64,000 bases of DNA from NCBI GenBank assembly GCA_963682005.1, contig OY820914.1:605433-669432 (forward strand), in the 5' to 3' direction. A program made the translations under genes and the position numbers. The notes beneath the pieces are model-generated. The model was not told the origin of the DNA. It worked only from the letters and a program-made list of their open reading frames with translations, and searched no databases. Source of the stretch: Bacteroidales bacterium (GTDB lineage: Bacteria > Bacteroidota > Bacteroidia > Bacteroidales > FEN-979). This document shows positions 1 through 14,481 of this stretch, in pieces. The number at the start of each line of letters is the position of its first letter. Position 1 is the stretch's first letter.

Positions 1-1
1 G

Positions 2-340
2 AAAATTGCATTCCCGACCGATGACGGGTTAATGATCGCTGAAGAATTCAACCAGGCAAAAGGTTTTCTCATACTTACAGTTGAGTTGGGAGAGATCGAA
101 CAACAGGAAATGAGGTGGAATACCAGCATCGACCCCTTGCAAAACGGATTCGGATCCTTCGCAAATCTTGATGGTTGCGACATCCTGATCGTACGCGAGA
201 TTCCGGAAAATTCCAGGGATTTCCTTACAGGAAAAGGCATAGAGGTGAACCGGACCAATGAGTTGATCATCACAAAATCGATCATAAAATTCATTGACAG
301 TTCCCTGAGGGAAAAGGCAAACAGCTGCTGCTGCCCCTGA
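2..340 (+). CDS. NifB/NifX-family (iron-molybdenum cofactor-binding-like) protein, 5'-truncated by the window edge
   Basis: Frame is open from base 2 (KIAFPTDDGLMIAEEFNQAKGF...). The KIA-P-DDG...F..A..F pattern is typical of NifX-like proteins. Paralogue of 9301..9663; ends in CCCP. Confidence 0.65.
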   Translation, partial: KIAFPTDDGLMIAEEFNQAKGFLILTVELGEIEQQEMRWNTSIDPLQNGFGSFANLDGCDILIVREIPENSRDFLTGKGIEVNRTNELIITKSIIKFIDSSLREKANSCCCP

Positions 341-408
341 GATTACCGTCTTTCTTCCTGATATTGAATGTTTGCTAAGAAAATTATCTCCTTTACTGAG
401 AAAAAATT

Positions 409-1899
409 ATGCTTTTACTTGACCGGAAAATTGTAACCCTTGAAAAATATTTCCAAAAATACCGGGAGAACACGATTGGCAATGATCACCGCTTTTTAAC
501 TCCGTTCGGGTATAAAAGAATGATCTATGCAGATTGGATCGCCAGCGGCAGGCTTTATAATCCGATTGAAAAACAATTGACTTATACCATTGGGCCTTTC
601 GTGGGCAATACCCATACCGAAACCAGCGAGAACGGCAAACGGATGACCCAGGCTTACCACATGGCCCATGAGAAGATCAAGAACCATGTTAATGCCGGGC
701 CAGATGATGTGATCCTGACTACCGGCTTCGGGATGACAGGTGCCATTGTAAAATTTCAGCGTATCCTTGGATTAAAGACCTGTGGAGAGATTTCCCATCG
801 TACTTGCCTGAAAGAAGCCGACAGGCCTGTAATATTCGTGACTCACATGGAGCATCATTCCAACCAGACCACGTGGTATGAAACCTCCGCTGATGTTGTC
901 GTGATCGAACCGGGGAAGGATATGCTGGTCGACCTTAACAGGCTGGAGGATACCTTGAAAAAATACAAAGACCGGAAACGAAAAATCGGTTCATTTACGG
1001 CTTGCTCCAACGTGACCGGTATCCGGACTCCTTATCATAAAATGGCAAGAATGATGCACGAGCATGGCGGACTTGCATTTATTGACTTCGCTGCCTCTGC
1101 ACCTTATGATGAAATAAATCTTCACCCCCAGGACCCTTTTGAGAAGATCGACGGGATGTTCTTCTCCCCGCATAAATTCCTTGGCGGACCGGGGGCATCA
1201 GGCGTACTGATTTTCGACTCGGGCCTTTACAATAACAAAGTGCCTGACCAGCCCGGGGGTGGTACGGTCGACTGGACAAACCCCTGGGGCGAATACAAGT
1301 ATATCGACAACATCGAAACCCGTGAAGATGGAGGAACCCCGGGCTTCCTGCAGGCAATACGAACGGCCCTCGCCCTGGAACTTAAAAACCAGATGAATGT
1401 TGCGAATATCCATGATCGCGAAAAACAACTGATAACCCTGGCATTCCGTGAACTTCAATCAGTACCCGACATCCAGATCCTGGCTGGTCATGTGCAGGAC
1501 CGGCTTGGCGTGATTTCCTTCTATATCCCGTCCATTCACTACAACCTGATCGTGAAACTGCTTAGCGACCGGTTTGGGATCCAGGTAAGAGGCGGCTGTG
1601 CCTGTGCCGGTACATATGGCCATTACCTTCTTGATGTCAGCTACACAAAGTCGAAAAGCATTACGGAGAAGATCAATCATGGCGATCTCTCCGAAAAACC
1701 AGGATGGGTAAGGCTTTCTCTCCATCCAACCATGACGGATGATGAAATAAGATTCATTGCCGATGCATTGAAACAAATCCGGAAACATCATCAGCTATGG
1801 AGCCAGGATTATTTCTATAACAAACACACGAATGAATTCAGTCACAAGCTTGAAACCCCCGGGAACAATACCGTTAACGAGTGGTTCCGCCTGAAATGA
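409..1899 (+). CDS. PLP-dependent class V aminotransferase (cysteine desulfurase/selenocysteine lyase-like)
   Basis: EHHSN, DFAASAPY, FSPHKFLGG (PLP lysine), GGGTV, GTP and RGGCACAG (catalytic Cys region) motifs. Confidence 0.85.
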   Translation: MLLLDRKIVTLEKYFQKYRENTIGNDHRFLTPFGYKRMIYADWIASGRLYNPIEKQLTYTIGPFVGNTHTETSENGKRMTQAYHMAHEKIKNHVNAGPDDVILTTGFGMTGAIVKFQRILGLKTCGEISHRTCLKEADRPVIFVTHMEHHSNQTTWYETSADVVVIEPGKDMLVDLNRLEDTLKKYKDRKRKIGSFTACSNVTGIRTPYHKMARMMHEHGGLAFIDFAASAPYDEINLHPQDPFEKIDGMFFSPHKFLGGPGASGVLIFDSGLYNNKVPDQPGGGTVDWTNPWGEYKYIDNIETREDGGTPGFLQAIRTALALELKNQMNVANIHDREKQLITLAFRELQSVPDIQILAGHVQDRLGVISFYIPSIHYNLIVKLLSDRFGIQVRGGCACAGTYGHYLLDVSYTKSKSITEKINHGDLSEKPGWVRLSLHPTMTDDEIRFIADALKQIRKHHQLWSQDYFYNKHTNEFSHKLETPGNNTVNEWFRLK

Positions 1900-1921
1900 C
1901 ACTATGGTGCCTTTCTTCATT

Positions 1922-1961
1922 TTGTGATAAATATCACAATTCCACTTGTGATGAATCACAA
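1922..1961. promoter_or_regulatory. Tandem palindromic operator(s), Crp/Fnr- or Rex-like
   Basis: TTGTGA-TAAATA-TCACAA at 1922-1939 and TTGTGA-TGAA-TCACAA at 1946-1961, upstream of the dsrE2-tusA-hdr operon. Confidence 0.6.
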
Positions 1962-1992
1962 TAATATCACCTGACCCGATTGAACACCAAAC

Positions 1993-2000
1993 TATCTTTG
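1993..2000 (+). promoter_or_regulatory. Bacteroidota housekeeping -7 promoter element
   Basis: TATCTTTG matches TAnnTTTG, 46 bp before the dsrE2 start. Confidence 0.55.
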
Positions 2001-2046
2001 CAGCACTCAATATTCACATATCTATATATATAATAACACCTTTAAT

Positions 2047-2592
2047 ATGATCACAGACATTGATAAACAGCTCGGCGAACTAAAAACACAAGTCTCCAGG
2101 CTTGAAGCCGGAACAAAAGACCAACTATCGATGGTTGTCTTCTCCGGCGATCTTGATAAAATACTTGCCGCCATGATCATTTCAACAGGGGCTGCAGCGT
2201 ATGACATGAAAGTCAAGCTCTTCTTTACGTTCTGGGCCATTTCTGCACTTCGCGACCCGAAGAAAAATGGCAAAGGAAAGAATCTGGTCGAGAAGATGTT
2301 CGGCTTTATGCTTCCCAGGGGCAGCAATAAGGTGGCCCTTTCGAAGATGAACATGGCCGGGATGGGAAAAGCGATGATCAAGGGGATCATGAAAAAACAC
2401 GGGGTTCCTTCGCTGGAAGAGTTGATCCGTACCGCAGGTGAGTTAGGTGTTGAGATAAACATCTGTGAAATGTCGATGAACCTGATGGGATTCAAAAAAG
2501 AAGAAATGATCGATTATCCCAACATGACCATCTGTGGTGTCGCCACATTTTTATCAGATGCACAGGAGAGTAAAATTCAATTATTTATTTAA
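2047..2592 (+). CDS. DsrE/DsrF/DrsH-like (DsrE2) sulfurtransferase
   Basis: SMVVFSGDLDK, LFFTFWA, conserved ICEMSMNLMG Cys motif and C-terminal GVATFL...LFI. Confidence 0.85.
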   Translation: MITDIDKQLGELKTQVSRLEAGTKDQLSMVVFSGDLDKILAAMIISTGAAAYDMKVKLFFTFWAISALRDPKKNGKGKNLVEKMFGFMLPRGSNKVALSKMNMAGMGKAMIKGIMKKHGVPSLEELIRTAGELGVEINICEMSMNLMGFKKEEMIDYPNMTICGVATFLSDAQESKIQLFI

Positions 2593-2603
2593 TACATAAA
2601 ACA

Positions 2604-2855
2604 ATGACTACTGACGAACTGAAAAGCGTAAAATCGAATAAAATCGTTGATGCCCGTGGAACAGCCTGTCCCGGCCCTTTATTGGCAGCCAAGAAAGCGA
2701 TCGGCGAGATCGAATCAGGCGACATTATGGAGATTTACTCTTCCGATGAAGGAACAAAAAATGATATTCCAAAGTGGTGCCAGAAAATGACCCATGATTT
2801 CCTTGGAATTGTTGAAGAAGACAGCTATTCCAGGCTGTTCATGAAAAAAGCATAG
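2604..2855 (+). CDS. tusA: TusA-family sulfur carrier protein
   Basis: DARGTACPGP (CPxP persulfide Cys) and DIPKW; 83 aa. Confidence 0.9.
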   Translation: MTTDELKSVKSNKIVDARGTACPGPLLAAKKAIGEIESGDIMEIYSSDEGTKNDIPKWCQKMTHDFLGIVEEDSYSRLFMKKA

Positions 2856-3012
2856 TAATTTTCATTTCATTGCTTACACCGGGTAAATTCGGAAATCCTT
2901 TGTGCCCTCCGTGAATCCCATGTGTCCTTTGTGGTTTTTATTTTTTATTTAAGCCTTGTTTGAGATCTTTTGTAATTCGATCTCCGGCTATAGAATTGTT
3001 AAAAATTTAACT

Positions 3013-3411
3013 ATGGAAAACCGACCCAAACGCCCAAAGATCCTTGTCTTTTCCACCGATAAGATCTCTGATCCAGGCATTGACCAGGCAGGACTGAGAA
3101 AGATCCACTACTCACCCAGTGTTTACACCATCAGCCTCCCCTGCTCCTCCGGGATAAAACCCCGATGGATCCTGCATGCCTTTGAACAGGGTTTCGATGG
3201 CGTTTTCATCGCAGCCGACGGACATGAATGTTCTTACAGCCCGAAATGTCCCGACTTCACCAACAGGATCATCGAAGAGTCGCAGCGACTTATGAAGGAA
3301 AATAACATCAACCCGAAAAGGATCAGGATGGCCGCGATCTGCTCTGTATGTGCAGAACCTTTTGCCGGCCATATGGCCAATTTTAGTAAAATTTTATCAG
3401 AACTCGAATGA
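3013..3411 (+). CDS. MvhD/FlpD-like hydrogenase iron-sulfur (delta) subunit, variant
   Basis: PKILVF...D.AG...Y...LPCSSG...AF..GFDGV...INPKR pattern. ATG at 3013 is preferred over the TTG at 2956. Overlaps the next start (ATGA). Confidence 0.8.
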   Translation: MENRPKRPKILVFSTDKISDPGIDQAGLRKIHYSPSVYTISLPCSSGIKPRWILHAFEQGFDGVFIAADGHECSYSPKCPDFTNRIIEESQRLMKENNINPKRIRMAAICSVCAEPFAGHMANFSKILSELE

Positions 3412-6155
3412 CGAAGAAAATCCAAAATTACGATACACTGGTGATCGGAGGCGGGATTGCCGGACAGGAAGCTGCGCTTAACCTGGCCAATATGGATTAC
3501 AAAGTCCTCCTGGTAGAAAAAGGACTCTCCATCGGCGGGAAAATGATCCAGCTTAGCAAAGTCTTCCCTACACTAGACTGTGCAGCCTGCATTACCACAC
3601 CAAAAATGTCGGAAACCGCAAGGCATCCGAACATCACCTTGCTGCTGAACAGCCAGGTTGAAAGCATTCGCAGGGAAAATGGCGATTTCAGCGTGGAGAT
3701 CGCGAAACACCCGAGGTATGTGATCCCTGAATCCTGCACGGGGTGCCAGGAATGTGAACAGGCCTGCCCGGAAGTAAGGCCGGATGAATACAATGCAAAT
3801 CTTGCCGGGAGGAAAGTTGCCTATATACCTTTCAGCCTGGCAAACCCACGCATTGCAGTGATCGACCGCCAGGAAACCTCAGCACCATGCATCGCAGCAT
3901 GCCCCGGTGGTGTAAAACCATATGGGTATGTGTCACTGGTGAGAAACGGACAATATGAAGAGGCCATGAACCTTCACCTTGAAGATGCACCGCTCCCCGG
4001 CAGCCTCGGCCGTGCCTGCTATGCTCCCTGCCAGGGTGAATGCACACGTGCCAGCCTGGAAGGATCTGTCGACATGCGCCGGATAAAAAGATTCTTTGCC
4101 GAAGATTATTACAACAAGTATCCGACGCCTCCCGCCCGGACCATCGAAACGAAAAGCGGGAAAAAAGTGGCCGTTATCGGCTCCGGTCCTGCCGGACTCA
4201 CTGCTGCCTATTTCCTTGCCCTTAAAGGTCATAATGTGAAGATCTTTGAAGCAGCGCCCCAACTGGGCGGAATGCTGAAGATGACCCTGCCTGAATACCG
4301 TCTTCCCAATGCAGTCGTGGACCGTGACATTCTGAATGTCCTCTCCCTGGGTGTTGAATATGAGGTAAACAGGAGGATCGAAAACCTTGACAATCTTAAG
4401 AAAGAAGGATTTGAAACGGTTTTTGTTTCTGTTGGGACCCATGAGACAAGCAAAATGAATGTCGAAGGGTCTGATCTCAAAGGTATCGTGTCATGCCTTG
4501 ATTTCCTGCGTGAATCCAAGATTGGCAAAAAGAGTGACCTTACCGGGAAAAAGGTGATGGTCATTGGAGGCGGAAATACAGCGATGGACGCTTCACGCAC
4601 GGCCATCAGGCTGGGCGCGTCTAGCGTGAAGATCATTTACCGGAGAAGCAGGTCGGAAATGCCCGCCTGGAAAATAGAGATCCAGGAAGCAGAAGAAGAA
4701 GGCGTAAAGATCAGTGAACTCTGTAATCCTGTGAAGTTCACCGGGGTGAATGGCATAGTTAATAAAGTAGAGCTGATCCGGATGAAACTCGGCGAACCGG
4801 ATGCAAGTGGCCGGAAAAGACCAGTTCCCGTGGAAGGCTCTGAATATACGGAAGAAGCTGATTTCATCATCGAAGCCATCGGCTTGCAACCTACAACTTC
4901 TGTTTTCAGCAATGAACTGGAACTTAAGAAAAACGGCACCATCAAAGTCAACGAAAAAACCCTCCAGACAACAAAGCCTTGGATTTTCGCAGGTGGTGAT
5001 ACGGTCACCGGTCCCTCAACCATTATCGAAGCGGTCGGACAAGGGAAAAAAGCTGCTTTTTACATCGACAAGTTCCTTCTGAACGAAAATCCTGAAGATT
5101 ACGAATTCGGCGATAAGCTGGCACCGGTCGATAAAAAAAAGATCCTTGAACACAAGAATATTATGCCGTTACCGGCGCTGAAGGAAAAGTTCAGACCGGT
5201 TCATGAAAGGATCAGGGATTTCCTGGATGTGGAAAATACATTCACCTCGGAAGAGGCCAGGCAAAGCACTGAGCGCTGCCTTGACTGCAGCAATTGCCGT
5301 GAATGCCACCAGTGTATTTCGGCCTGCCCGGCCCATGCGATCGATTTTTCCCAGAAAGAAGAAACAGTCAGGGCGAAAGCCGGATCAGTCATTGTCTCCA
5401 CCGGGTTCAACTTGTTTGATCCGGATGCAAAGCCACAATACGGCTCGGCAAAATATGCCAATGTTATCGACTCGCTTCAGATGGACAGGCTGATCGCTCC
5501 AACCAGGCCTTTTAACAATGTTCTCCGGCCAGGTGACGGGAAAGTCCCGGGAAATATTGCCTACGTTCTGTGCACCGGGTCAAGGGATTCAAGCCTCGAG
5601 AATTACCGTTCCTGCAGCGCCGCAAGTGCCAACAACCCGATCTGTTCGCAGATCTGTTGCATGTACTCGGTCAAACAGGCCCAGCTTCTTATGGGAGCTT
5701 TGCCCATGGCCGACATCAGCATCTATTACATGGATATCAGGGCATTCGGAAAAGGATACGAAGAATTCTTCCAGCAGTCGAAATCGATGGGGGTGAATTT
5801 TGTCAAAGGTAAAGTGGCGAAGATCCGTGAAAAGGAAGATGGCAGCGGCGATCTCATTCTGCGGTTTGAAAACATCGAAACCGGCCAGGTGAAAGAGGTA
5901 AGCCATGATCTTGTGGTGCTTTCCGTTGGTATAAAGCCCGACAACAAGATCGTAAAAGCATTCAGGGATGCCACCCTGGAAGTGGATGAATTCAGCTTCA
6001 TAAAATCGGTGGATGTTCTTACAAATCCTGCCAGGACAAACATCGAGGGCGTTTTCGTTGCAGGAACTGCCTCCGGCCCTATGGACATTCCGGATTCGAT
6101 ATTATCCGCCGGTTGTGCCGCTTCTGAAACGGCCAGTTATCTAAACAACAAGTAA
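3408..6155 (+). CDS. HdrA-family flavoprotein with an inserted GltD/NfnB-like NAD(P)H-binding module (HdrL-type)
   Basis: HdrA parts: GGGIAG, FPTLDCAAC, CTGSRD...CSQICC. Ferredoxin motifs CTGCQECEQACP and CRECHQCISACP. GltD-like parts: APCIAACP, GRACYAPCQGEC, GSGPAG, GGGNTAMD, RRSRSEMPA, FAGGD. Confidence 0.85.
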   Translation: MTKKIQNYDTLVIGGGIAGQEAALNLANMDYKVLLVEKGLSIGGKMIQLSKVFPTLDCAACITTPKMSETARHPNITLLLNSQVESIRRENGDFSVEIAKHPRYVIPESCTGCQECEQACPEVRPDEYNANLAGRKVAYIPFSLANPRIAVIDRQETSAPCIAACPGGVKPYGYVSLVRNGQYEEAMNLHLEDAPLPGSLGRACYAPCQGECTRASLEGSVDMRRIKRFFAEDYYNKYPTPPARTIETKSGKKVAVIGSGPAGLTAAYFLALKGHNVKIFEAAPQLGGMLKMTLPEYRLPNAVVDRDILNVLSLGVEYEVNRRIENLDNLKKEGFETVFVSVGTHETSKMNVEGSDLKGIVSCLDFLRESKIGKKSDLTGKKVMVIGGGNTAMDASRTAIRLGASSVKIIYRRSRSEMPAWKIEIQEAEEEGVKISELCNPVKFTGVNGIVNKVELIRMKLGEPDASGRKRPVPVEGSEYTEEADFIIEAIGLQPTTSVFSNELELKKNGTIKVNEKTLQTTKPWIFAGGDTVTGPSTIIEAVGQGKKAAFYIDKFLLNENPEDYEFGDKLAPVDKKKILEHKNIMPLPALKEKFRPVHERIRDFLDVENTFTSEEARQSTERCLDCSNCRECHQCISACPAHAIDFSQKEETVRAKAGSVIVSTGFNLFDPDAKPQYGSAKYANVIDSLQMDRLIAPTRPFNNVLRPGDGKVPGNIAYVLCTGSRDSSLENYRSCSAASANNPICSQICCMYSVKQAQLLMGALPMADISIYYMDIRAFGKGYEEFFQQSKSMGVNFVKGKVAKIREKEDGSGDLILRFENIETGQVKEVSHDLVVLSVGIKPDNKIVKAFRDATLEVDEFSFIKSVDVLTNPARTNIEGVFVAGTASGPMDIPDSILSAGCAASETASYLNNK

Positions 6156-6158
6156 CAC

Positions 6159-8156
6159 ATGGAAAATAAAGAAAAAAAAGAACGGATCGGTGTCTATATC
6201 TGTCATTGCGGTGGGAATATTTCCGATTATGTTGATGTTGCACAGATCAAGGACCTTGTAAAAACCGAGGACGGGGTTGTCGTATCAAAGAATGTCATGT
6301 TCGCATGCGCCGATTCCAACCAGAAGGAAATGATAAAGGATATCCGGGATGGCAACCTCGATGCGATCGTAGTGGCTTCCTGCTCCCCGAAACTTCATCT
6401 CCATACCTTCAGGAATGTCGCTGCCCGGGCCGGGATAAATCCCTATAACTACACACAGGTAAATATCCGTGAACAATGTTCATGGGCCCATTCGGATACT
6501 CCGAAGGAGGCCAGCCTGAAAGCAGCAGGGCTCATCCGTGCCGGGATCAGGAAAGTGGCCTTTTCTGAAGCACTTGAAAATATTGAGGTCTCATCCACAC
6601 GGGCAGCAGTCGTTATCGGTGGAGGCGTTTCCGGTATGCGCGCAGCCATCGACCTGGCAAAGATGGGGAATATGGTATACCTTATCGAAAAGGAAACAAT
6701 CCTGGGCGGCCAGGTTGCAAAATGGGGAGACCTTTTTATTACCGGGCAATCCGGGAAAAAAATAGTGGAGACCCTTCAGACGGAAGTGAAAAAGCAAACA
6801 AATATCACGGTCTTCACCTCTGCCTCGGTTGAAAAAGTCTCCGGCAGCCTGGGGAACTTTCAGGTCGAAGTGAAAACAGGCAATGAGACGCTTAACCTGG
6901 CAGCGGGAGCCATCCTTGTCACCACCGGTTTCGACAATTATCAGCCGGCAGAAAATGAGTTCGGATACAAGAATGTGGATGCAGTCATTACCTTGCCCGA
7001 ATTCAGGGAACTCCTTGACAATAGCAGGGAAACCCTGGTTTACAAGAACAAGGCGATAAAAACCATTGCCTATATCTATTGCACCGGCACAAGGCAGACG
7101 AAAGGCGAGAATAAATATTGTTCACGGGTTTGCTGTACAACAGCGATCCACAGCTCGATCCTGCTTCACGAAAAATTCAGGGGAATCACTGCAATCCATC
7201 TTTACCGGGATATCCGGACCTATGGGAAACAGGAGATCCTCTATGAAAAGGCCTCAAAGAACGGTGATATTTTCATCAAATACGAGGAGAAAACACCGCC
7301 TGTTGTTGAACAGGTTAACGGTAAGCCTTTCATAAAAGTTAAAGATGAGCTTACACGGAAGATGGTACTTGAACTGGAGCCTGACCTTGTCGTCCTTGTC
7401 ACTGGGATGGTTCCACGCACCGACAGCAATATCATCGCACAGAAATTGAAAATACCTGTAGGAAATGATAAATTCTTCAACGAGATCCATCCTAAGCTCA
7501 GGCCGGTTGAAACGGTGATAAACGGGGTTTTCCTCGGGGGATCGTGCCAGGGGCCGAAGAACATTTCCGAATCGGTGCAATCCTCATTGTCGGCAGCTGT
7601 CAAGATCAATGCCCTGACAAAGAACCCTACCATTCTGCTTGAACCGATCATTGCAAGAGTGAATTTTGAAGCCTGCACCTGGTGCGGGAAATGTGCGGAA
7701 GTATGTGAATATGACGCCATCCATCCATTGGAAATGCATGGTAAAGTCGTAGCAACAGTGAACGAAGCCGTTTGCAAAGGGTGCGGGATCTGTGCACCCG
7801 TTTGCCCCGTTGATGCAATCGACATTGCCCAGTATTCGAATACTGAGATCGAAGGGATGATCGATGGATTCTGCCAGGAAATAGAAATTAAAGTGGCTGA
7901 AAAATCCGGTCCGGACAACAATGAGGAAGCCGGAACAGGAATGAAGGATATGCCGCAGATATGGCGCAGGATAGCGTCATCCCTGGAATCTGAACCCAAA
8001 ACAATACCGGTGATGGCAAAAGAGCTTGGACTTGAAAAAGAACTTGTGACCTGGCACCTGATGACCATGAACAAATACAGCATTGTGGAGGCTGCCGGCA
8101 TCGATGATACTGATGAATATTATATGTATAAACTGAAAAATCAACAGCATGGCTAA
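6159..8156 (+). CDS. Heterodisulfide reductase subunit A-family (HdrA/QmoA-B-like) protein with C-terminal ferredoxin and winged-helix-like tail
   Basis: GVYICHCGGNI, CSPKLH, NIREQCSWAH, GGGVSG, CTGTR...CSRVCC, HPKLRPVET and two CxxCxxCxxxC motifs. Confidence 0.88.
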   Translation: MENKEKKERIGVYICHCGGNISDYVDVAQIKDLVKTEDGVVVSKNVMFACADSNQKEMIKDIRDGNLDAIVVASCSPKLHLHTFRNVAARAGINPYNYTQVNIREQCSWAHSDTPKEASLKAAGLIRAGIRKVAFSEALENIEVSSTRAAVVIGGGVSGMRAAIDLAKMGNMVYLIEKETILGGQVAKWGDLFITGQSGKKIVETLQTEVKKQTNITVFTSASVEKVSGSLGNFQVEVKTGNETLNLAAGAILVTTGFDNYQPAENEFGYKNVDAVITLPEFRELLDNSRETLVYKNKAIKTIAYIYCTGTRQTKGENKYCSRVCCTTAIHSSILLHEKFRGITAIHLYRDIRTYGKQEILYEKASKNGDIFIKYEEKTPPVVEQVNGKPFIKVKDELTRKMVLELEPDLVVLVTGMVPRTDSNIIAQKLKIPVGNDKFFNEIHPKLRPVETVINGVFLGGSCQGPKNISESVQSSLSAAVKINALTKNPTILLEPIIARVNFEACTWCGKCAEVCEYDAIHPLEMHGKVVATVNEAVCKGCGICAPVCPVDAIDIAQYSNTEIEGMIDGFCQEIEIKVAEKSGPDNNEEAGTGMKDMPQIWRRIASSLESEPKTIPVMAKELGLEKELVTWHLMTMNKYSIVEAAGIDDTDEYYMYKLKNQQHG

Positions 8157-9261
8157 AATTGATCCAGGATTCGCATCCGAAATTAAGAAATACGGAGCCA
8201 GGGATTTCACTGCCTGCTTCAATTGCGGTAATTGCACCGCCGTGTGCGGTCTGACCGATAAAAATGCAAACTTCCCCCGGATGTTCATCCGTGATGGCAT
8301 GCTTGGACTGAAGGATGACATCCTTCAAAGCAAGGAACTATGGCTATGCTATGCCTGCGGAGAATGCTCGGAAACCTGTCCGCGTCAGGCCGGACCTGGC
8401 GATTATATGGCTGCCCTCAGGCGTTATGCCATCGCAAGTTATGAGCCTACAGGACTTACGAAGCTTATCTTTAAGAGCAACCCGCTTTTTATCCTGTTTA
8501 CCATCCTCCTGTCTGTCCTTCTTGGATTTTTCCTGTTCACGCTCAAACCGGAATATGAAGTTTCAAGATGGTTGTTTACGATCTTTCCCTATGCAGTGAT
8601 CCACAATATGGGACTTGTTGTTTTTGGTATCACCGGGATCTCTATGATTTGGGGATTGTTGACGATGTTCCTGAAACTATCGAAAAAAACGGTAAAAAAT
8701 GAAAATTCGAAAGGAAAATTTTTCAGTTCATTGGGTGGGATTGTAAAAGAAATGTCGACAATGAACCGCTACAAAACATGCGACGCTGAAGAGGATTCTT
8801 TCTGGAAGAATAAATCTGCGGCTCTGCAGCCCTGGTTTGTCCACTGGTCAATCATGTGGGGATTCATCGGCTTGCTCCTCGCAACCACCCTGGATTTTAT
8901 CCTGAAGGATCCTGAAACAGCCATCTGGTGGCCGACCCGGATACTGGGAACAATTTCCGGATTACTCCTTGTTTACGGAACCAGCATTGCCATTAATTAC
9001 CGTTTCAAAAAACCAACGAAATCCTATGAAGGAACCCGCCTCTCAGACTGGCTGTTCCTCTGGTTTCTCTGGATTGCGGGGATTACAGGATTCTGGCTCG
9101 AAGTTTCTGTCGCCCTCACCGGTAACAATCTTTTGAGCCACTTCGTTTTACTTATTCATACCATAATTTCAATGGAGCTGGTACTCTTGTTTTCCTTCTC
9201 AAAATTTGCCCACGCAATATACCGTCCCCTGGCGTTATATTTTTATTTTTCAGAAAGATGA
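8149..9261 (+). CDS. QmoC-like membrane subunit (HdrC-type 2[4Fe-4S] domain plus cytochrome b-like TM domain)
   Basis: CFNCGNCTAVC and CYACGECSETCP followed by about 6 TM helices with candidate heme-b histidines; ends SKFAHAIYRP. Confidence 0.8.
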   Translation: MAKIDPGFASEIKKYGARDFTACFNCGNCTAVCGLTDKNANFPRMFIRDGMLGLKDDILQSKELWLCYACGECSETCPRQAGPGDYMAALRRYAIASYEPTGLTKLIFKSNPLFILFTILLSVLLGFFLFTLKPEYEVSRWLFTIFPYAVIHNMGLVVFGITGISMIWGLLTMFLKLSKKTVKNENSKGKFFSSLGGIVKEMSTMNRYKTCDAEEDSFWKNKSAALQPWFVHWSIMWGFIGLLLATTLDFILKDPETAIWWPTRILGTISGLLLVYGTSIAINYRFKKPTKSYEGTRLSDWLFLWFLWIAGITGFWLEVSVALTGNNLLSHFVLLIHTIISMELVLLFSFSKFAHAIYRPLALYFYFSER

Positions 9262-9300
9262 AAAAGTTTTGTTAATTTCACATACTCATATCTAACTCCA

Positions 9301-9663
9301 ATGATACGTAAAAAACGTTCAACCCAGAAAATTGCAATACCAAGTGACGATGGGATCTTAGTCGGTCAACAGTTTAAAAGCTCAAGGGCATTTGTTGTCG
9401 CCACGGTCGACGACGGAAAAATCCTTCGCCAGGAATTACGATGGAACCTCATCAGCGAGATCATGACCTCCCCTCACGGGTATTATTACAACCTCGCCGA
9501 TTGCAATACCATCATTGTAAATGAAATCGGTGAAGGCCACACAAGACTCCTTGGCTCTATTAACAAAGAAGTCATCCAAACAGAGGAAACGCTTGTCAAT
9601 AATGCCTTCCTGATTTATCTCAGGAAAGCTTCCCTGAAAGCAGAAAAAATTAAATCGCTTTAA
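9301..9663 (+). CDS. NifB/NifX-family protein
   Basis: KIAIPSDDG...F..SRAF..., DCNTIIVNEIGEG; paralogue of 2..340. Confidence 0.7.
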   Translation: MIRKKRSTQKIAIPSDDGILVGQQFKSSRAFVVATVDDGKILRQELRWNLISEIMTSPHGYYYNLADCNTIIVNEIGEGHTRLLGSINKEVIQTEETLVNNAFLIYLRKASLKAEKIKSL

Positions 9664-9797
9664 TATCACCAATCCGAATTTTCTTTTTACATTTGCACCA
9701 TAAAACTAAATGATTAATCACTATTGTACCAGTAATTTTACAAATTACAGAAAATCTGACTAATAAACCTTTGCTGACTTTTTCGTTTCTGTCCATT

Positions 9798-9854
9798 GTA
9801 CCCATCCCCCGTCCCCTTCCCTACTAGTAGGGAAGGGGTGCAGGGGTAGGGTAC
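9798..9854. repeat. REP-like GC-rich palindrome
   Basis: Perfect 26-bp palindrome CCCCTTCCCTACTAGTAGGGAAGGGG at 9813-9838, with imperfect outer arms GTACCCATCCCC / GGGGTAGGGTAC. Confidence 0.75.
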
Positions 9855-9904
9855 GGTTAAGATTATTGGTATAATTGTGATCATTCGAATAAAACTATTT
9901 GATT

Positions 9905-10330
9905 ATGGAAATTACTTTTATTGTGCTCGGAATTGTTGTTGTCATCGTTGCAGTCCTGTTCTTCATTGCAAAAGGAAGGATGAAGCAATTGGAAAATGTT
10001 CCGGAAAGCAGCAAGATCATCACCATGGATGATAAAAATTTCTCACACCGGGTAAAGACCGGGATCGTTCTCGTGGATTTCTGGGCTGCCTGGTGCATGC
10101 CTTGTAAGCTCATGGCACCGGTGCTGAATGAACTGGCCGAAGAATCCAATGGAAAAGTCACGATTGGAAAAGTAAATATAGACGAAGCAAAAGAAACAGC
10201 CGCCCGGTTTGGGATCCGGAGCATTCCGACCATGATCCTTTTCAGGAACGGGAAAGAGCTCCACAGGATTGTAGGCGTCAAGCCAATAGATTATATTCGC
10301 AGGGAAATTGAGCGCAGATCGATTTATTGA
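9905..10330 (+). CDS. trxA: Thioredoxin with an N-terminal membrane anchor
   Basis: LVDFWAAWCMPCK active site and RSIPT cis-Pro; about 22-aa hydrophobic N-terminal helix. ATG at 9905. Confidence 0.85.
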   Translation: MEITFIVLGIVVVIVAVLFFIAKGRMKQLENVPESSKIITMDDKNFSHRVKTGIVLVDFWAAWCMPCKLMAPVLNELAEESNGKVTIGKVNIDEAKETAARFGIRSIPTMILFRNGKELHRIVGVKPIDYIRREIERRSIY

Positions 10331-10361
10331 ACATGTTATTCTCAATTAAATCGGATTAATA

Positions 10362-10430
10362 TTCTCCGTGGTCTTCGTGTCTTCTTTGTGAACTCTGTGG
10401 TCAAAATATTTTACCACAAAGGCCACAGAG
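10362..10430. repeat. Intergenic CTCTGTG-type degenerate repeat/hairpin
   Basis: CTCCGTG/CTTCGTG/CTTTGTG/CTCTGTG units, with CTCTGTGG (10393) pairing to CCACAGAG (10423). Related tracts at about 2895-2940, 13154-13175 and 61968-61995. Confidence 0.5.
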
Positions 10431-10515
10431 ATTCAAAGTTGATTTCTTACCGAATAATAATTTGCGGGACAAAATAGTGTCGAAATAAACAAAAAAGGGT
10501 ATTAAACCAGGGTTT

Positions 10516-10935
10516 ATGAAAAAGATAATTCTGCTGTTTTTCCTGATGACCGGTCTCTTTTACTCTGGCTCAGCCCAAACTAAAGGGACTTCATCAAATC
10601 CCGTTAAAGTGGAAGTATATTACTTTCATCCTTCCGAACGCTGCCCGATCGACCAATCCATCGAGGAAAACTCAAAAAGGGTTGTGGAGACTTCTTTTCC
10701 CAGGGAAGTAAAAGAGGGTTCGTTGAAATTCAGGGTTGTCAATACCGATGACAAGGGGAATGAGAAACTTGTTTCGAGATTCGATATCAATACACAGGCA
10801 TTGTACATTGTGAGAGTGGATAAAGGAAAGGAAACGAAGACCGACCTTACCGATTTTGCATTCTCCTTCAGCAAAAGCAACCCTACAAAGTTCAAAACCC
10901 GGTTGACGGATGAGATCAGGAATGCCCTGAAGTGA
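10516..10935 (+). CDS. Exported thioredoxin-fold protein (ArsF-like family)
   Basis: Signal peptide and KVEVYYFH...RC motif; here CxxD rather than CxxC. Confidence 0.65.
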   Translation: MKKIILLFFLMTGLFYSGSAQTKGTSSNPVKVEVYYFHPSERCPIDQSIEENSKRVVETSFPREVKEGSLKFRVVNTDDKGNEKLVSRFDINTQALYIVRVDKGKETKTDLTDFAFSFSKSNPTKFKTRLTDEIRNALK

Positions 10936-10947
10936 CCCAAGACATCT

Positions 10948-11325
10948 CTACGCTGTTTCTTTCGTAAAGAACATTTTAATCGCAATCAGGATCATCAGTA
11001 CTGCGAAGATCTTTTTCATCACATTCTCCGGCATGTTCAGAGCTACTTTTGATCCGAAATAACCTCCGATCAGAAATGCCACTGCGATGACCATGGCATA
11101 CCAGATGTTGACCTGTCCTGCACGGTAATAATTATAGGCCGCAAACAGCCCGATCGGGGGAAGCATCACAGCCACACTTGTTCCCTGGGCAGTATGCTGG
11201 TCCACCCCAAGGATATAAACCATCGCCGGTATCATGACGATCGCACCCCCGACCCCGAACATGCCTCCAAAAACACCTGCCATCAAACCTATGATGATCA
11301 GTATCCCTATTGTTGTCAGATTCAT
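10948..11325 (-). CDS. TauE/SafE-family sulfite exporter (half-size)
   Basis: GLMAGVFGGMFGVGGAIVMIP, QHTAQGTS and 4 TM helices. Likely start MNLTTIG at 11325. Confidence 0.85.
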   Translation of the reverse strand: MNLTTIGILIIIGLMAGVFGGMFGVGGAIVMIPAMVYILGVDQHTAQGTSVAVMLPPIGLFAAYNYYRAGQVNIWYAMVIAVAFLIGGYFGSKVALNMPENVMKKIFAVLMILIAIKMFFTKETA

Positions 11326-11353
11326 ACCTCGCTGTTTATTGATTTGAAATCTG

Positions 11354-11740
11354 CTACAGGCTGTCAATGACATTCCGCAGCAGTCCTGTAACTTCCAGGG
11401 CAACCGGTTCAAGTTCCGGGTTGCTGATCGCCATCATCGAAGCGATGGGATTGACTGCGGAAACCTCCGTTTGCCCGTTCTCCTTGTCGATTACGATGAC
11501 ATTGCATGGAAGCATCGTCCCGATCTTATCCTCGGCCATCAGTGCCTTGTAAGCAAAACCCGGGTTACATGCACCAAGAATCCGGTACTTCTTAAAGTTT
11601 ACCCCCAGTTTCTCGTTCAGCTTTTCATGGATGTTGATCTCGGAAATGATCCCGAATCCTTTCGTTTTCAATACATCGGTAACTCGTTGAACCGATTCGT
11701 CAAATGATACGTTCAACGTTTTGGTAAAATAATAGTCCAT
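11354..11740 (-). CDS. DUF302 family protein
   Basis: GFGIISEI, YRILGACNP and LPCNVIV motifs. Confidence 0.9.
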   Translation of the reverse strand: MDYYFTKTLNVSFDESVQRVTDVLKTKGFGIISEINIHEKLNEKLGVNFKKYRILGACNPGFAYKALMAEDKIGTMLPCNVIVIDKENGQTEVSAVNPIASMMAISNPELEPVALEVTGLLRNVIDSL

Positions 11741-11791
11741 GATCCTGTTGTTTATGTTAAACTTCCTCCGGTTACACTCTTTATTCCAATT

Positions 11792-12226
11792 TCAACCGGT
11801 CAGTATTTTCTGCATGACTGTCTTTTCCCGCTCAGTCAGCGATTCGATCTCCTTGATCGCCCCCTGGATCTTGGTCTTGAACTTCCAGCAGGTCATCTGG
11901 CGAAGCGACAATCTCCTCGCAAATTCATAAGTGGAAACATCCTCATTTCCCTTGCATACGTTAAAAGCAATGTAGAATGCCTTGCTTAGCGGGAATTTAC
12001 AGTTATGAAATATTGTTCCCGTGGTAGCTGATTCTTCCGTCTTGCATTTGGTACACCTTCGCGAATGCGGAGTCTTGCCGGAACAGAAATTGGTATTCCC
12101 GCATTTCCTGCAGATAAACCCGTCCTTCCACTTAACTTCAGCCAGGAATTCGAGGCATTTCCCATCATTCTGAAACAATTCCTCAAGTTTCTCTTTTGAA
12201 AGATCTCCGTTGAAAATAAAGCCCAT
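11792..12226 (-). CDS. Stand-alone IS1595-type zinc-ribbon/HTH protein without a DDE domain; possible regulator
   Basis: C..FL..VKW.DGF.CRKCG...RRCTKC...SAT.GTIFH..K.PL matches the IS1595 transposase N-terminus. The ORF stops at 144 aa with no catalytic domain. Confidence 0.65.
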   Translation of the reverse strand: MGFIFNGDLSKEKLEELFQNDGKCLEFLAEVKWKDGFICRKCGNTNFCSGKTPHSRRCTKCKTEESATTGTIFHNCKFPLSKAFYIAFNVCKGNEDVSTYEFARRLSLRQMTCWKFKTKIQGAIKEIESLTEREKTVMQKILTG

Positions 12227-12376: not shown

Positions 12377-12796
12377 ATGACAAAACAATCCATAGATGTT
12401 CAGTGGACTTCAAACATGGCCTTCCAGGCTACCGTTGATGGTCATAAGTTTGTTATTGATCTTGATCCGGAAAAAGGCGGAGAGAACCTGGGTCCGCGTC
12501 CAAAACCGCTGCTCATGGTCGCCCTGGCCGGATGCACGGGGATCGATGTTATTTCCATTTTAAAAAAAATGCGTGTCGAACCAACCTTTTTCAATGTTAA
12601 AGCAGAAGGCGAAGTTACCGAGGATCATCCGAAACATTTTACAACGATCCACCTGGTGTATGAATTCAAAGGAGATGACCTTCCGCTCGACAAGCTCCAG
12701 AAAGCCGTTGATCTGTCACAGGAAAAGTATTGCGGAATTTCATATACTTTGCGGCAGGCCCTTGGCCTCACATCTGAAATCAGGATTTTATCTTAA
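12377..12796 (+). CDS. OsmC/YhfA family protein
   Basis: GPRPKPLL..ALAGCTGIDV and LSQEKYCG motifs. Confidence 0.9.
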   Translation: MTKQSIDVQWTSNMAFQATVDGHKFVIDLDPEKGGENLGPRPKPLLMVALAGCTGIDVISILKKMRVEPTFFNVKAEGEVTEDHPKHFTTIHLVYEFKGDDLPLDKLQKAVDLSQEKYCGISYTLRQALGLTSEIRILS

Positions 12797-13327: not shown

Positions 13328-13762
13328 ATGAAGACAATGAAAAGGATTTCTATTCTGATGATCATCATCGCACTGTTCGGTTTCCAGGGATTCTCCCAGA
13401 TCGCATCAACAACAGCTCCGAAAGAAAAACCCCAGACGGCTCAGACCAGTTCCAAGGCAGTTCCGGGCAAGTTCGTCGACAACAATAAAAATGGCATCTG
13501 CGATAACCACGAAGGCAAAATGCAAAATGGCAAATGTGCGAATTTTGTTGACAAAAACGGGGATGGTATTTGCGATAACCAGAAGGATTGCTGTAAAGGG
13601 AAAGGCAATGCCGGTAACTGCGGAAATGGATGCCAGCACAAAAATGGACAGGGAAAAGGGAATTGCGGCACAGGATGTGGCAATCACCATAGGTACGGAT
13701 GCTCAGGACAGAGTGGTTCAACCGCTCCAGCCCAGCAAGCCCCAACACAGGAAAAGAAATAG
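13328..13762 (+). CDS. Secreted Cys/Gly-rich protein with two FVDxNxxGICD loops
   Basis: Signal peptide; FVDNNKNGICD and FVDKNGDGICD; GNCGxGC repeats. Confidence 0.7.
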   Translation: MKTMKRISILMIIIALFGFQGFSQIASTTAPKEKPQTAQTSSKAVPGKFVDNNKNGICDNHEGKMQNGKCANFVDKNGDGICDNQKDCCKGKGNAGNCGNGCQHKNGQGKGNCGTGCGNHHRYGCSGQSGSTAPAQQAPTQEKK

Positions 13763-14480: not shown

Positions 14481-14481
14481 T

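Follow-up and report, generated by a model that had tools for sequence, protein, structure and literature searches.

What would a Qmo-like set of redox genes do in a genome that lacks recognizable partners for a conventional Qmo, and how does it relate to the sulfur carriers encoded beside it? The question arises from a 64,000-nucleotide window of a Bacteroidales genome (contig OY820914.1, positions 605,433 to 669,432), in which genes for DsrE2, TusA, MvhD, HdrL, HdrA and a QmoC-like protein follow one another on the + strand at 2047-9261. An earlier note made from the sequence had proposed this six-gene composition, and the ORFs sit exactly at the positions it gave, with the gene identities correct. 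The joining of sulfur carriers to a membrane flavin/iron-sulfur complex suggests that sulfur handling and the cell's electron carriers are linked in a hidden way.

A conserved operon and its neighborhood

DsrE2 (2047..2592, +; PF13686, 2.4e-51) is a sulfur carrier of the soluble type, with a single weakly hydrophobic stretch in its hydropathy profile and with 3pnx_A and 2qs7_A as its closest solved relatives. Its Cys140 is invariant (68/68 sequences). The TusA carrier (2604..2855, +; PF01206, 1.8e-21) has the active-site motif C22-P-G-P, and Cys22 is likewise invariant in two alignments (47/47 and 70/70 sequences). The four redox genes behind them are as tightly coupled as had been described: the MvhD and HdrL ORFs overlap by 4 bp, HdrL and HdrA are separated by 3 bp, and the HdrA and QmoC-like ORFs overlap by 8 bp.

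Among 75 related loci, 56 carried all six genes in identical order. The remaining 19 loci were all truncated at the locus or contig end, and no untruncated locus lacked any of the six genes. Thus, the shared order is far beyond chance. Of 301 genomes sampled from the order Bacteroidales, 65 had an operon of this type, and a literature search found no description of it. This is a conserved, uncharacterized operon of anaerobic Bacteroidales.

The operon is apparently controlled by an FNR-like regulator. A divergent gene of the Crp family (G000:C1:604471-605172, -; Crp/cNMP-binding), seen in locus L097, lies outside the window, ~250 bp further upstream of a gene for a NifX/NifB-like small protein. 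Cys12, Cys15 and Cys113 of the regulator are kept in 49-50 of 50 homologues, and a divergent Crp-family regulator with conserved cysteines occurs in 53 of 78 loci. The NifX/NifB-like protein (1..340, +; PF02579, 1.3e-07) belongs to the dinitrogenase FeMo-cofactor-binding family and ends in CCCP; its gene starts ~11 bp before the window, with the full ORF seen in L097. A class-V aminotransferase (409..1899, +; PF00266, 3.4e-44) is only distantly SufS-like, scoring 136.6 bits with TIGR01979 sufS, far below the cut-off of 475. It is a candidate cysteine desulfurase and possible persulfide source, and 13 of 75 loci have such a gene between DsrE2 and the regulator.

A second NifX-like gene (9301..9663, +; PF02579, a weak 2.9e-4) begins 39 bp past the QmoC-like gene; the two copies share 33% identity, and the downstream one is present in 13 of 75 loci. 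A thioredoxin (9899..10330, +; TIGR01068, 5.2e-35, above cut-off) with an N-terminal hydrophobic anchor (residues 1-31) and CxxC at 66-69 is encoded 3' of the operon in 11 of 75 loci. More loosely associated are an ArsF-family small protein (10516..10935, +; NF040494, 8.9e-28; 5 of 75 loci), a half-size TauE/SafE-family membrane protein (10948..11412, -; PF01925, 5.5e-25), possibly a sulfur-anion exporter, and an OsmC-family thiol peroxidase-like protein (12377..12796, +; NF008009, 4.9e-20, below cut-off). Homologues of the TauE/SafE protein are found downstream in three loci and as upstream tandem pairs in four; OsmC genes also lie 3' of an hdrC/hdrB pair in two loci, with homologues in two others.

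An additional DsrE gene is present in three loci. In one relative (G279), a TusA-like gene, the transporter gene YeeE, four rhodaneses, a porin and two DsrE2-like genes precede the operon core on a single strand, and the array continues with TusA, MvhD, QmoA-like, HdrA and QmoC. The proposed link to protein-bound sulfur is thus borne out by the invariant TusA Cys22 and DsrE2 Cys140 and by the YeeE, second TusA and four rhodaneses of this relative. Note that no YeeE was found in the present genome and no rhodanese within the operon.

HdrL and the second HdrA are complementary halves of a methanogen-type HdrA

MvhD (2956..3411, +, with a probable ATG start at 3013; PF02662 FlpD, 7.3e-27) is an MvhD/FlpD-type [2Fe-2S] adaptor with five invariant cysteines, and its homologues are 133-142 residues long. 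HdrL (3408..6155, +) combines an HdrA/QmoA-type FAD core with an NfnB/GltD-like module. Residues 1-130 and 623-912 match HdrA, with the motif FPTLDCAAC in the FAD core. Similarity to NAD(P)-binding PRK12771 (5.6e-146) and to NfnB/GltD-type structures, including the solved NfnB chains 4ylf_B (1.7e-82) and 5jca_L, extends over residues 155-658. The insert (~155-620) is an NfnB/GltD-like NAD(P)H-FAD-2x[4Fe-4S] module placed inside the ferredoxin domain. In an alignment of 64 sequences, conservation reaches at least 95% in 434 of 915 columns; insert-free relatives have ~436 residues. The NAD(P)H-module HdrA of the earlier note is therefore present here, but as a minority variant: only 16 of the 65 operon-bearing genomes (301 sampled) have the insert and 49 lack it, so that this module cannot define the ancestral function.

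The second HdrA-type flavoprotein (6159..8156, +; NF040770, 3.7e-151) consists of an N-terminal 4-Cys domain, an FAD core, a C-terminal 2x[4Fe-4S] domain and a ~90-residue tail, which is a separate ORF of 90-104 residues in four loci. Its FAD core has neither the inserted ferredoxin domain nor the DCxxC motif. Matches to 8rvu_a (10-243) and 5odc_A (317-650) skip residues ~244-316. HdrL and the QmoA-like form align to HdrA 143-559, including the FPTxDCxxC site, where a methanogen structure sequence shows a non-standard residue (X) that we take to be selenocysteine. Together, HdrL (or the short QmoA-like form) and the second HdrA are shown to be complementary halves of a methanogen-type HdrA, the former providing the FAD core, the Cys/Sec motif and the inserted ferredoxin domain, and the latter the N-terminal cluster domain and the C-terminal ferredoxin domain.

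The QmoC-like membrane subunit (8149..9261, +) matches NF038018 qmoC end to end (7-365 of 370; 2e-58), with a score of 198.6 bits that falls below the NCBI cut-off of 300 bits; its look-alikes are QmoC/TcuB-type proteins. An HdrC-like head with eight invariant cysteines for two [4Fe-4S] clusters precedes a NarI/HdrE-like membrane part with five transmembrane helices predicted from hydropathy. Only three membrane histidines are invariant (His232, His337 and His355), whereas four are expected for two haems. The cluster cysteines of the operon products are all invariant. The subunit is presumed to be the menaquinone interface. Genes of the MqnA/D family, UbiA and NrfD are present in the genome, and menaquinone-type quinones are plausible because futalosine-pathway genes are among them.

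Genome context and possible functions

Searches covered the complete genome, a single 5.27-Mb contig. No match was obtained for AprA, ATP sulfurylase (PF01747) or the NIR_SIR domain of DsrAB-type sulfite reductases, and control genomes gave the expected results for the latter two. The postulated absence of Apr, Sat and Dsr thus holds for the genome, and the operon is therefore not a conventional Qmo. The window contains no CCG domain, all nine CCG matches being elsewhere in the genome, and no hydrogenase was found among its scanned ORFs. The lack of HdrB and hydrogenase claimed earlier is accordingly true of the window but not of the genome, in which HdrB/HdrC occur in an Flx-Hdr-type and an sHdr-like cluster, and a paralogous HdrA-QmoC-HdrA-MvhD core is joined to an Mvh-type NiFe hydrogenase (MvhDGA). 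The earlier note had taken hdrBC present elsewhere and co-regulated to speak for a conventional Qmo/Hdr; hdrBC genes do exist elsewhere, but they do not make the system one of that kind. In sum, the gene identities, the missing Apr/Sat/NIR_SIR and the sulfur link of the earlier interpretation stand, whereas the absence of HdrB and hydrogenase does not extend to the genome, and the NAD(P)H module is a minority feature. The electron bifurcation and the sulfur respiration or detoxification proposed in the note are conjectural.

The best reading, held with moderate confidence on sequence grounds, is a modular menaquinone-linked electron hub serving TusA/DsrE2-bound sulfane sulfur. MvhD, HdrL, HdrA and the QmoC-like protein would form a membrane-bound Qmo-like complex working with the TusA/DsrE2 sulfur relay. 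The menaquinone pool and a sulfur substrate, carried as persulfide by TusA/DsrE2, would be connected through these four subunits to each other and to a low-potential partner, either ferredoxin or, through the NfnB-like insert of this lineage, NAD(P)H. On tentative thermodynamic arguments of our own, we favor the reductive direction, in which sulfane sulfur would end up as sulfide; the electrons would be supplied by NAD(P)H and/or menaquinol together with a low-potential donor. The sulfane sulfur may derive from cysteine via the SufS-like enzyme in this genome, and from thiosulfate or polysulfide imported via YeeE and rhodaneses in relatives. The operon has no CCG/HdrB subunit and its co-occurrence with sHdr-like HdrB is weak (odds ratio 1.7, p 0.06, among relatives that are not independent); a dedicated persulfide-reducing site was therefore not found. 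Persulfide chemistry would probably be performed by separately encoded HdrB/HdrC-type proteins where present, or by the flavin-proximal cysteine of HdrL. Genes for sHdr-like hdrC/hdrB are within ~26 kb of the operon in 8 of the 30 genomes having both, including three where they adjoin it. If the reductive reading is true, the operon would give a fermenter both an electron sink and a sulfide source.

More doubtful is the opposite direction, in which the operon would deliver sulfur to, and take electrons out of, an sHdr-like system that oxidizes sulfane sulfur. TusA/DsrE2 would then feed the separately encoded sHdr-like complex (HdrC1-HdrB1-short HdrA-HdrC2-long HdrB2), and MvhD, HdrL, HdrA and QmoC would pass electrons to menaquinone and NAD(P)+, substituting for the lipoate/NAD+ or Etf/EMO route of known sHdr types. 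Consistent with this, the short HdrA of the genome's sHdr-like cluster best matches Hyphomicrobium sHdrA over its full length (6tjr_A, 2e-63). The sHdr-like hdrC/hdrB adjoin the operon in three relatives, with the entire cluster 1.3 kb after an HdrL-type operon in G174 and hdrC1/hdrB1 abutting the regulator in G178 and G279. A TauE/SafE-family gene is near the operon in 8 loci, the window included. Also in favor, according to the excerpted text of PMC11094781, 302 of 397 shdr clusters are linked to tusA and 199 of 397 contain dsrE2, and electrons of type II sHdr are proposed to reach menaquinone. However, sHdr-like HdrB (E≤1e-30) is unmatched in 35 of the 65 operon-bearing genomes and occurs without the operon in 78 genomes. 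Moreover, the genome's two GcvH-family genes do not adjoin the sHdr-like cluster, no lipoate-ligase context was seen, and no sulfite-consuming enzyme (Apr, Sat, NIR_SIR) was found in the genome. The relatives' assemblies stem from anoxic lake water, peat, fen, permafrost and groundwater, where a high-potential acceptor is not obvious.

The core itself is modular: one paralog is coupled to the Mvh hydrogenase, and G411, from a different class of the phylum, has a related core but neither TusA nor DsrE2, so that the core does not need sulfur carriers. From these two cases follows the argument for a general electron hub, namely an NAD(P)H/ferredoxin:menaquinone bifurcating or confurcating oxidoreductase analogous to FixABCX/EtfABCX, with TusA/DsrE2, and here also the SufS-like and NifX-like proteins, serving only Fe-S assembly or a regulatory thiol switch. 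The ~ten Fe-S cluster motifs counted from cysteine patterns across the operon products, and the recurrence nearby of cluster-handling genes (NifX-like, Mrp/NUBPL-type, SufS-like), would fit. We nevertheless consider this sulfur-independent role improbable: within the order, no untruncated locus lacks TusA or DsrE2, whose active-site cysteines are invariant; the YeeE/rhodanese array of G279 suggests that a sulfur substrate is imported; and the 49 operons without the NAD(P)H module have no obvious mid-potential donor.

Selenium handling, with the carriers moving selenium and the complex giving reducing power for selenide formation, is very unlikely. TusA is weakly similar to YedF selenium-metabolism proteins (TIGR03527, 6.7e-07), the NfnB-like part resembles YgfK (TIGR03315, 5.3e-106), and the SufS-like enzyme might act as a selenocysteine lyase (NF040779, 1e-10, a score far under the cut-off), but every match is below its family cut-off and weaker than the sulfur-family matches. 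The genome has selD, although 1.9 Mb distant, and the relatives' neighboring genes are sulfur-themed (rhodaneses, hdrB/hdrC, Cys/Met enzymes). Finally, a conventional QmoABC serving APS reductase, in sulfate reduction or sulfite oxidation, is hardly credible despite subunit types resembling QmoA, QmoB and QmoC, being refuted for this genome, barring an unrecognizable APS reductase, by the unmatched AprA, ATP sulfurylase and NIR_SIR and the low qmoC score.

Comparison with known systems

QmoABC is the quinone-interacting membrane-bound oxidoreductase of sulfate reducers and green sulfur bacteria. It comprises two HdrA-type flavoproteins, an MvhD-type module and a QmoC-type subunit, in which HdrC-like clusters are fused to a NarI/HdrE-like membrane domain, and has no HdrB in the complex. 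The operon shares this architecture, and its complex would likewise be expected to exchange electrons with the quinone pool on one side and a soluble partner on the other. In contrast to QmoABC, aprBA and sat are absent from the genome, MvhD has a gene of its own and is not a fusion partner of the QmoB-like subunit, an NfnB-like NAD(P)H module is present here in the QmoA-like subunit, TusA/DsrE2 are co-encoded, and the QmoC-like subunit falls below the model cut-off.

FlxABCD-HdrABC of Desulfovibrio is an Hdr complex linked to NAD(P)H; it includes MvhD, HdrB/HdrC and separate Flx subunits but has no membrane subunit or sulfur carriers. The operon resembles it as an NAD(P)H-linked Hdr-type complex with MvhD, and an Flx-Hdr-type cluster exists elsewhere in the genome; it differs in having a membrane subunit and sulfur carriers and in lacking HdrB/HdrC and Flx subunits. 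With methanogen MvhADG-HdrABC (5ODC, 8RVU and others) the operon shares the HdrA FAD core with its Cys/Sec motif, the MvhD adaptor and the inserted and C-terminal ferredoxin domains, and the paralogous cluster of this genome has MvhG/MvhA. However, the functions of HdrA are split over two proteins, and the QmoC-like subunit takes the place of HdrB/HdrC; the high-potential acceptor would therefore be a quinone, not a heterodisulfide.

As in sHdr systems, whose published clusters are often linked to tusA and dsrE2 according to the excerpted PMC11094781, the tusA-dsrE2 pair adjoins Hdr-type redox genes, and an sHdr-like cluster is also encoded by this genome and is a neighbor of the operon in some relatives. 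Unlike sHdr, the operon is without HdrB/HdrC and LbpA, its host is an anaerobic member of the Bacteroidales, and it encodes full-size HdrA-type proteins, MvhD and a QmoC-like subunit, of which the same excerpts make no mention for sHdr. HdrL of Desulfobacterium autotrophicum, as described in the excerpted text of PMC12142623, is an HdrA with an NAD(P)H-binding flavin module beside MvhD, as is the present HdrL, whose insert also relates it to NfnAB through the solved NfnB chains. Different from the D. autotrophicum protein, the insert is missing from most operon relatives, and, in contrast to both that protein and NfnAB, HdrL is here embedded in a Qmo-like operon linked to TusA and DsrE2.

The six-gene operon and its redox subunits

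ORF calling on the forward strand placed six consecutive genes exactly at the coordinates of the earlier note (2047-9261), and Pfam and NCBIfam searches confirmed the identity of each: DsrE2 (2047-2592), TusA (2604-2855), MvhD (2956-3411, likely ATG at 3013), HdrL (3408-6155), HdrA (6159-8156) and a QmoC-like gene (8149-9261). The last four genes overlap or are spaced by 3 bp. Upstream lie a NifX-like gene (1-340) and a class-V aminotransferase distantly resembling SufS (409-1899), and a second NifX-like gene (9301-9663) follows; the other flanks within the window encode an anchored thioredoxin and ArsF-like, half-size TauE-family and OsmC-family proteins. Promoter and terminator scans of positions 1-11000 returned 19 promoter-like sites (16.9 expected) and 11 terminator-like sites (13.4 expected).

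HdrL matches HdrA over residues 1-130 and 623-912. Residues ~155-620 are an NfnB/GltD-like NAD(P)H module (PRK12771, 5.6e-146; solved NfnB 4ylf_B, 1.7e-82). This module separates the two Cys motifs of the inserted ferredoxin domain. The HdrL-type feature, an HdrA core and an NAD(P)H flavin module in one polypeptide adjoining MvhD, is present. A search for HdrL homologues returned only close relatives with generic names ('FAD-dependent oxidoreductase', 'heterodisulfide reductase subunit A') and offered no lead on function. A shorter QmoA-like form of ~436 aa, found in relatives, aligns with residues 143-559 of a methanogen HdrA of solved structure. This region comprises a thioredoxin-reductase-like FAD core, an FPTxDCxxC motif and an inserted ferredoxin domain; where the motif has its second Cys, the sequence of one solved HdrA shows a non-standard residue X, which we take to be selenocysteine.

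For the second HdrA, of 665 aa, the match covers HdrA residues 10-243 and 317-650. Both the N-terminal cluster domain and the C-terminal ferredoxin domain are present, but neither the inserted ferredoxin domain nor the DCxxC motif. No FlpD/MvhD match was found in this protein, MvhD being a separate upstream gene. The last ~90 residues of this HdrA are a separate small ORF in four loci (L088, L095, L096 and L100). By the HdrA parts that each carries, HdrL and the second HdrA look, at the sequence level, like complementary halves of one HdrA dimer. The QmoC-like protein aligns end-to-end with the qmoC model NF038018 (7-365 to 4-360) at 198.6 bits (cut-off 300), and has eight invariant Cys for two clusters, five hydrophobic segments and three invariant His.

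Variants of these subunits were seen elsewhere. Locus L091 (G098:C2:84000-103000) encodes an HdrL-like fusion of ~1490 aa that is 37% identical to HdrL across all of the latter. HdrA and MvhD come next, and TusA, DsrE2 and a full QmoC are lacking, so that this is another architecture of the family; genome G176 has a long HdrL-like form similar to this fusion. At L095 5578-6891 (G279:C67) one in-frame TAG splits the QmoA-like gene into ORFs of 351 and 82 aa, which could reflect a pseudogene, a sequencing error or a read-through site.

Downstream of the operon, positions 11354-12226 on the reverse strand hold a 128-aa ORF without a match to any tested family, kept at this side of the operon in loci L014, L018 and L023. 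After it comes a 144-aa fragment that weakly matches an IS1595 transposase; L038 and L039 also have copies of this fragment near the operon. A 144-aa ORF at 13328-13762 (+), directly upstream of an ECF sigma/anti-sigma pair (13893-14931), has a signal-like N-terminus and a Cys/Gly/Asn/Lys-rich body with many CxxxC-like spacings; Pfam and NCBIfam gave zero matches for it. A type VI secretion locus of Bacteroidota type (15857-58016) takes up the remainder of the window, with a ClpV/ClpB-like ATPase, TssC, VgrG, two PAAR, two TssR-like proteins and TssN, together with two Tla1-like chaperone matches, an Ssp4-family effector match (32274-33131, reverse strand) and numerous ORFs without a family.

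Distribution and neighbourhood in relatives

A species-genome collection gave 660 matched stretches, of which 611 were confirmed to contain HdrL relatives; the 75 loci that were kept are from Bacteroidales assemblies. They include Paludibacter, Proteiniphilum, Prolixibacteraceae, Marinifilum and Dysgonomonadaceae, from lakes, peat, fen, permafrost, groundwater and digesters. The six genes stand in one order in 56 loci; the other 19 are end-cut on the side of the missing genes. Alignments showed TusA Cys22, DsrE2 Cys140, every cluster Cys and His232, His337 and His355 of the membrane subunit to be invariant.

Among 301 genomes drawn evenly from the order, full-length HdrL (≥68% identity) occurred in 16 and the short form without the NAD(P)H insert in at least 49. 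About one in five of the species sampled from this very common anaerobic order has the operon. The short form is ~60% identical to HdrL residues 1-166 and 625-913 and occupies the same operon in L088, L089 and L090. All 65 genomes listed with either form have the QmoC-like gene. In a wider sample of 401 genomes from across the phylum, close short-form matches turned up in just two additional genomes, one from the order and one from another class. The latter (G411) encodes MvhD, the QmoA-like form, HdrA, a 104-aa ORF and QmoC, without TusA and DsrE2.

A divergent Crp-family regulator stands upstream of the operon in 53 of 78 loci and is missing in at least four with long upstream flanks; in the source genome it lies ~250 bp ahead of the window start. 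Of 50 homologues, 49-50 retain its Cys12, Cys15 and Cys113, a pattern reminiscent of FNR-type cluster sensors. In the window's clade, the NifX-like and SufS-like genes lie between regulator and DsrE2. The context in relatives is sulfur-themed: genome G279 carries, on one strand, a TusA-like gene, YeeE, four rhodaneses, a porin and two DsrE2-like genes, followed by TusA, MvhD, the QmoA-like gene, HdrA, a 90-aa ORF and QmoC. TauE-family genes lie near the operon in eight loci, window included, and around the hdrC/hdrB copies near the operon are Cys/Met PLP enzymes, OsmC, an Mrp/NUBPL-type ATPase, NifX-like pairs and DUF134.

Other Hdr, hydrogenase and sulfur genes of the source genome

The earlier note had singled out the lack of HdrB and of a hydrogenase. 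This holds for the window, where a domain search found no CCG-domain HdrB, but not for the genome, which is complete (single contig, 5.27 Mb) and has nine CCG-domain matches in five proteins, all outside the window. With the whole genome read, this part of the oddity dissolves and the absence is a property of the window only. hdrB is present in two clusters, both on the reverse strand. The first, of Flx-Hdr type (G000:C1:1035918-1041860; L084 4944-11861), contains hdrC, hdrB, hdrA, mvhD and three genes resembling FlxC/B/A. Apart from HdrC, HdrB, HdrA and MvhD, the proteins of the cluster are a Fer4/FrhB-like protein of 283 aa and AsrA/ShyB-like and AsrB/ShyC-like proteins; a group II intron reverse transcriptase gene adjoins the cluster (L084 2977-4230).

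The second, sHdr-like cluster (G000:C1:3183078-3188263; L085 5079-10264) lies 2.6 Mb from the operon and encodes, in order, HdrC (239 aa), HdrB (356 aa), HdrA (338 aa), an HdrC-like protein (111 aa) and a Fer4+CCG protein (612 aa). The best solved match of the 338-aa HdrA is Hyphomicrobium sHdrA (6tjr_A, full length, 2e-63). No lipoate-binding protein gene was found beside this cluster; the two GcvH-family genes of the genome, one of them fused to a DGC domain, lie near neither it nor the operon. Homologues of its HdrB are present in 108 of the 301 genomes, an unexpected result in an anaerobic Bacteroidales lineage. The operon accompanies it in 30 of the 108 (odds ratio 1.7, p 0.06, among relatives that are not independent). 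Eight of these 30 have a copy of hdrB no more than ~26 kb from the operon (five verified in loci, three from coordinates only); it adjoins the operon in G178 and G279, and in G174 the entire sHdr-like cluster lies 1.3 kb downstream. Strict dependence of the operon on this cluster was ruled out, as 35 of the 65 listed operon genomes gave no match.

A third cluster (G000:C1:4239465-4247781, forward strand; L092 5466-13782) is a paralogous core fed by a NiFe hydrogenase: HdrA (603 aa), QmoC-like (376 aa), HdrA (577 aa), MvhD, MvhG/VhuG-like, MvhA/VhuA-like and a maturation protease. Its gene content suggests an H2:menaquinone/ferredoxin complex. An IS1182 transposase gene stands immediately upstream.

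The absence of Apr, Sat and Dsr, also remarked on in the earlier note, extends to the complete genome, in which aprA (TIGR02061), ATP sulfurylase (PF01747) and the NIR_SIR domain had zero matches. A conventional Qmo role is ruled out because these are missing. YeeE/Sulf_transp was likewise unmatched in the source genome, and a thiosulfate-import route was rejected on this basis. Classical MenA prenyltransferase was unmatched in the genome; MqnA/D-family genes of the futalosine pathway, UbiA-family and NrfD genes are present and make a menaquinone pool plausible.

Further redox loci were noted. A small sulfur-relay locus (G000:C1:377897-382207; L098) encodes a Pyr_redox_2 flavoprotein of 412 aa, an inserted IS element (transposase and integrase ORFs) and a DsrC/TusE-like protein of 103 aa, whose sole Cys is C-terminal, beside a divergent second DsrE2-family protein of 166 aa. 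An odd redox cluster at G000:C1:3683468-3686632 (L099 4469-7633) contains an ArsR-type regulator, a small thioredoxin, a ferredoxin, a GcvH-like domain fused to a DGC domain (308 aa) and two more DGC-domain proteins. A selD match (G000:C1:2506361-2507284, 378.6 bits) falls within an open frame of 839 aa, so the selenophosphate synthetase may be fused to another domain.

Proposed function and comparison with known systems

MvhD, HdrL, HdrA and the QmoC-like protein probably form one complex, in which the QmoC-like subunit would bind menaquinone and electrons would reach or leave persulfides on TusA/DsrE2. The HdrL/HdrA flavins may bifurcate, given their similarity to bifurcating HdrA and NfnB sequences. 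We give an even chance to a general model of a modular, menaquinone-linked electron hub of the Qmo/Hdr kind that serves TusA/DsrE2-bound sulfur. Its reaction would be set by a variable partner: hydrogenase in the paralogous cluster, the NAD(P)H module in this lineage and TusA/DsrE2-bound sulfur across the order. As to direction, we lean, with less than even confidence, toward reduction of sulfane sulfur to sulfide, which would provide an electron sink and a sulfide source. The hosts resemble fermenters living in anoxic habitats, NAD(P)H could plausibly act as the donor, and Cys/Met and Fe-S genes are grouped nearby. The observation of the earlier note stands, and its interpretation, a possibly bifurcating complex acting on protein-bound persulfide, is supported in part: the gene set, the sulfur-carrier context and the absence of Apr, Sat and NIR_SIR carry over; the lack of hdrB and hydrogenase does not, both being encoded elsewhere in the genome.

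A more specific proposal, which we regard as rather unlikely, is that the operon represents a third kind of Hdr-based sulfur machine in anaerobic Bacteroidales. MvhD, the split HdrA pair and QmoC would then replace the lipoate/NAD+ or Etf/EMO route of known sHdr systems, and redox chemistry on TusA/DsrE2-bound sulfane sulfur would be coupled both to menaquinone and, through bifurcation at the flavins, to ferredoxin or NAD(P)H. If so, common 'fermenters' of anoxic lakes, peat and groundwater would join cryptic sulfur cycling without Dsr, Apr or Sox. It is similarly doubtful that the operon serves sHdr-like oxidation of sulfane sulfur, a role with which the sHdr-like cluster in the genome is consistent, as is the habitual presence of tusA and dsrE2 alongside published sHdr systems (PMC11094781). 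A sulfur-independent, bifurcating NAD(P)H/ferredoxin:quinone enzyme would fit the G411 core without TusA/DsrE2 and the hydrogenase-joined paralogue, but leaves the strict keeping of TusA/DsrE2 unexplained and appears decidedly improbable. Sub-threshold family matches and selD, which is distant from the operon, are the sole pointers to a selenium role for carriers and complex, and we consider it very improbable.

This is a widespread, coherent and testable system. Qmo and Hdr complexes have a central place in sulfate reduction, in methanogenesis and in the oxidation of sulfur; to our knowledge, their partners outside these processes are mostly not known. Through the operon, such a complex is linked to dedicated sulfur carriers in genomes without any standard dissimilatory sulfur marker, and surveys based on dsrAB, aprAB or sox would overlook it. 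If carrier-bound sulfane sulfur is reduced or oxidised, fermentative Bacteroidales would be added to the cryptic sulfur cycle, and the operon would also be a tractable case of a quinone-linked HdrA-type bifurcating system. The short QmoA-like form, the NfnB insert, the Mvh hydrogenase and the core without sulfur carriers are natural variants for biochemical comparison.

The operon was not described in the full-text literature searched, with subscription-only reviews outside its scope and an earlier mention there possible, and goes unmentioned in passages of PMC12142623, PMC12998232, PMC6085437, PMC11094781 and PMC13293266. Unlike HdrABC, it has no two-CCG-domain HdrB catalytic subunit. It shares TusA and DsrE2, with invariant active-site Cys, with sHdr systems, whereas hdrC1-hdrB1-hdrA-(hyp)-hdrC2-hdrB2 is absent from operon and window. 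sHdr systems also come with a lipoate-binding protein, LbpA, and the genes for its maturation. HdrL and its short form resemble the QmoA-type HdrA-like flavoprotein of QmoABC. QmoC joins an HdrC-like 2x[4Fe-4S] head to a haem-b membrane domain; the QmoC-like protein spans the NF038018 model end-to-end but scores below its cut-off. QmoB is an HdrA-like protein with a fused C-terminal MvhD-like domain; in contrast, the second HdrA of the operon has no such fusion, and the source genome lacks the AprA and Sat partners of Qmo. The operon is best classed as a Qmo/Hdr-type complex with a new partner set.
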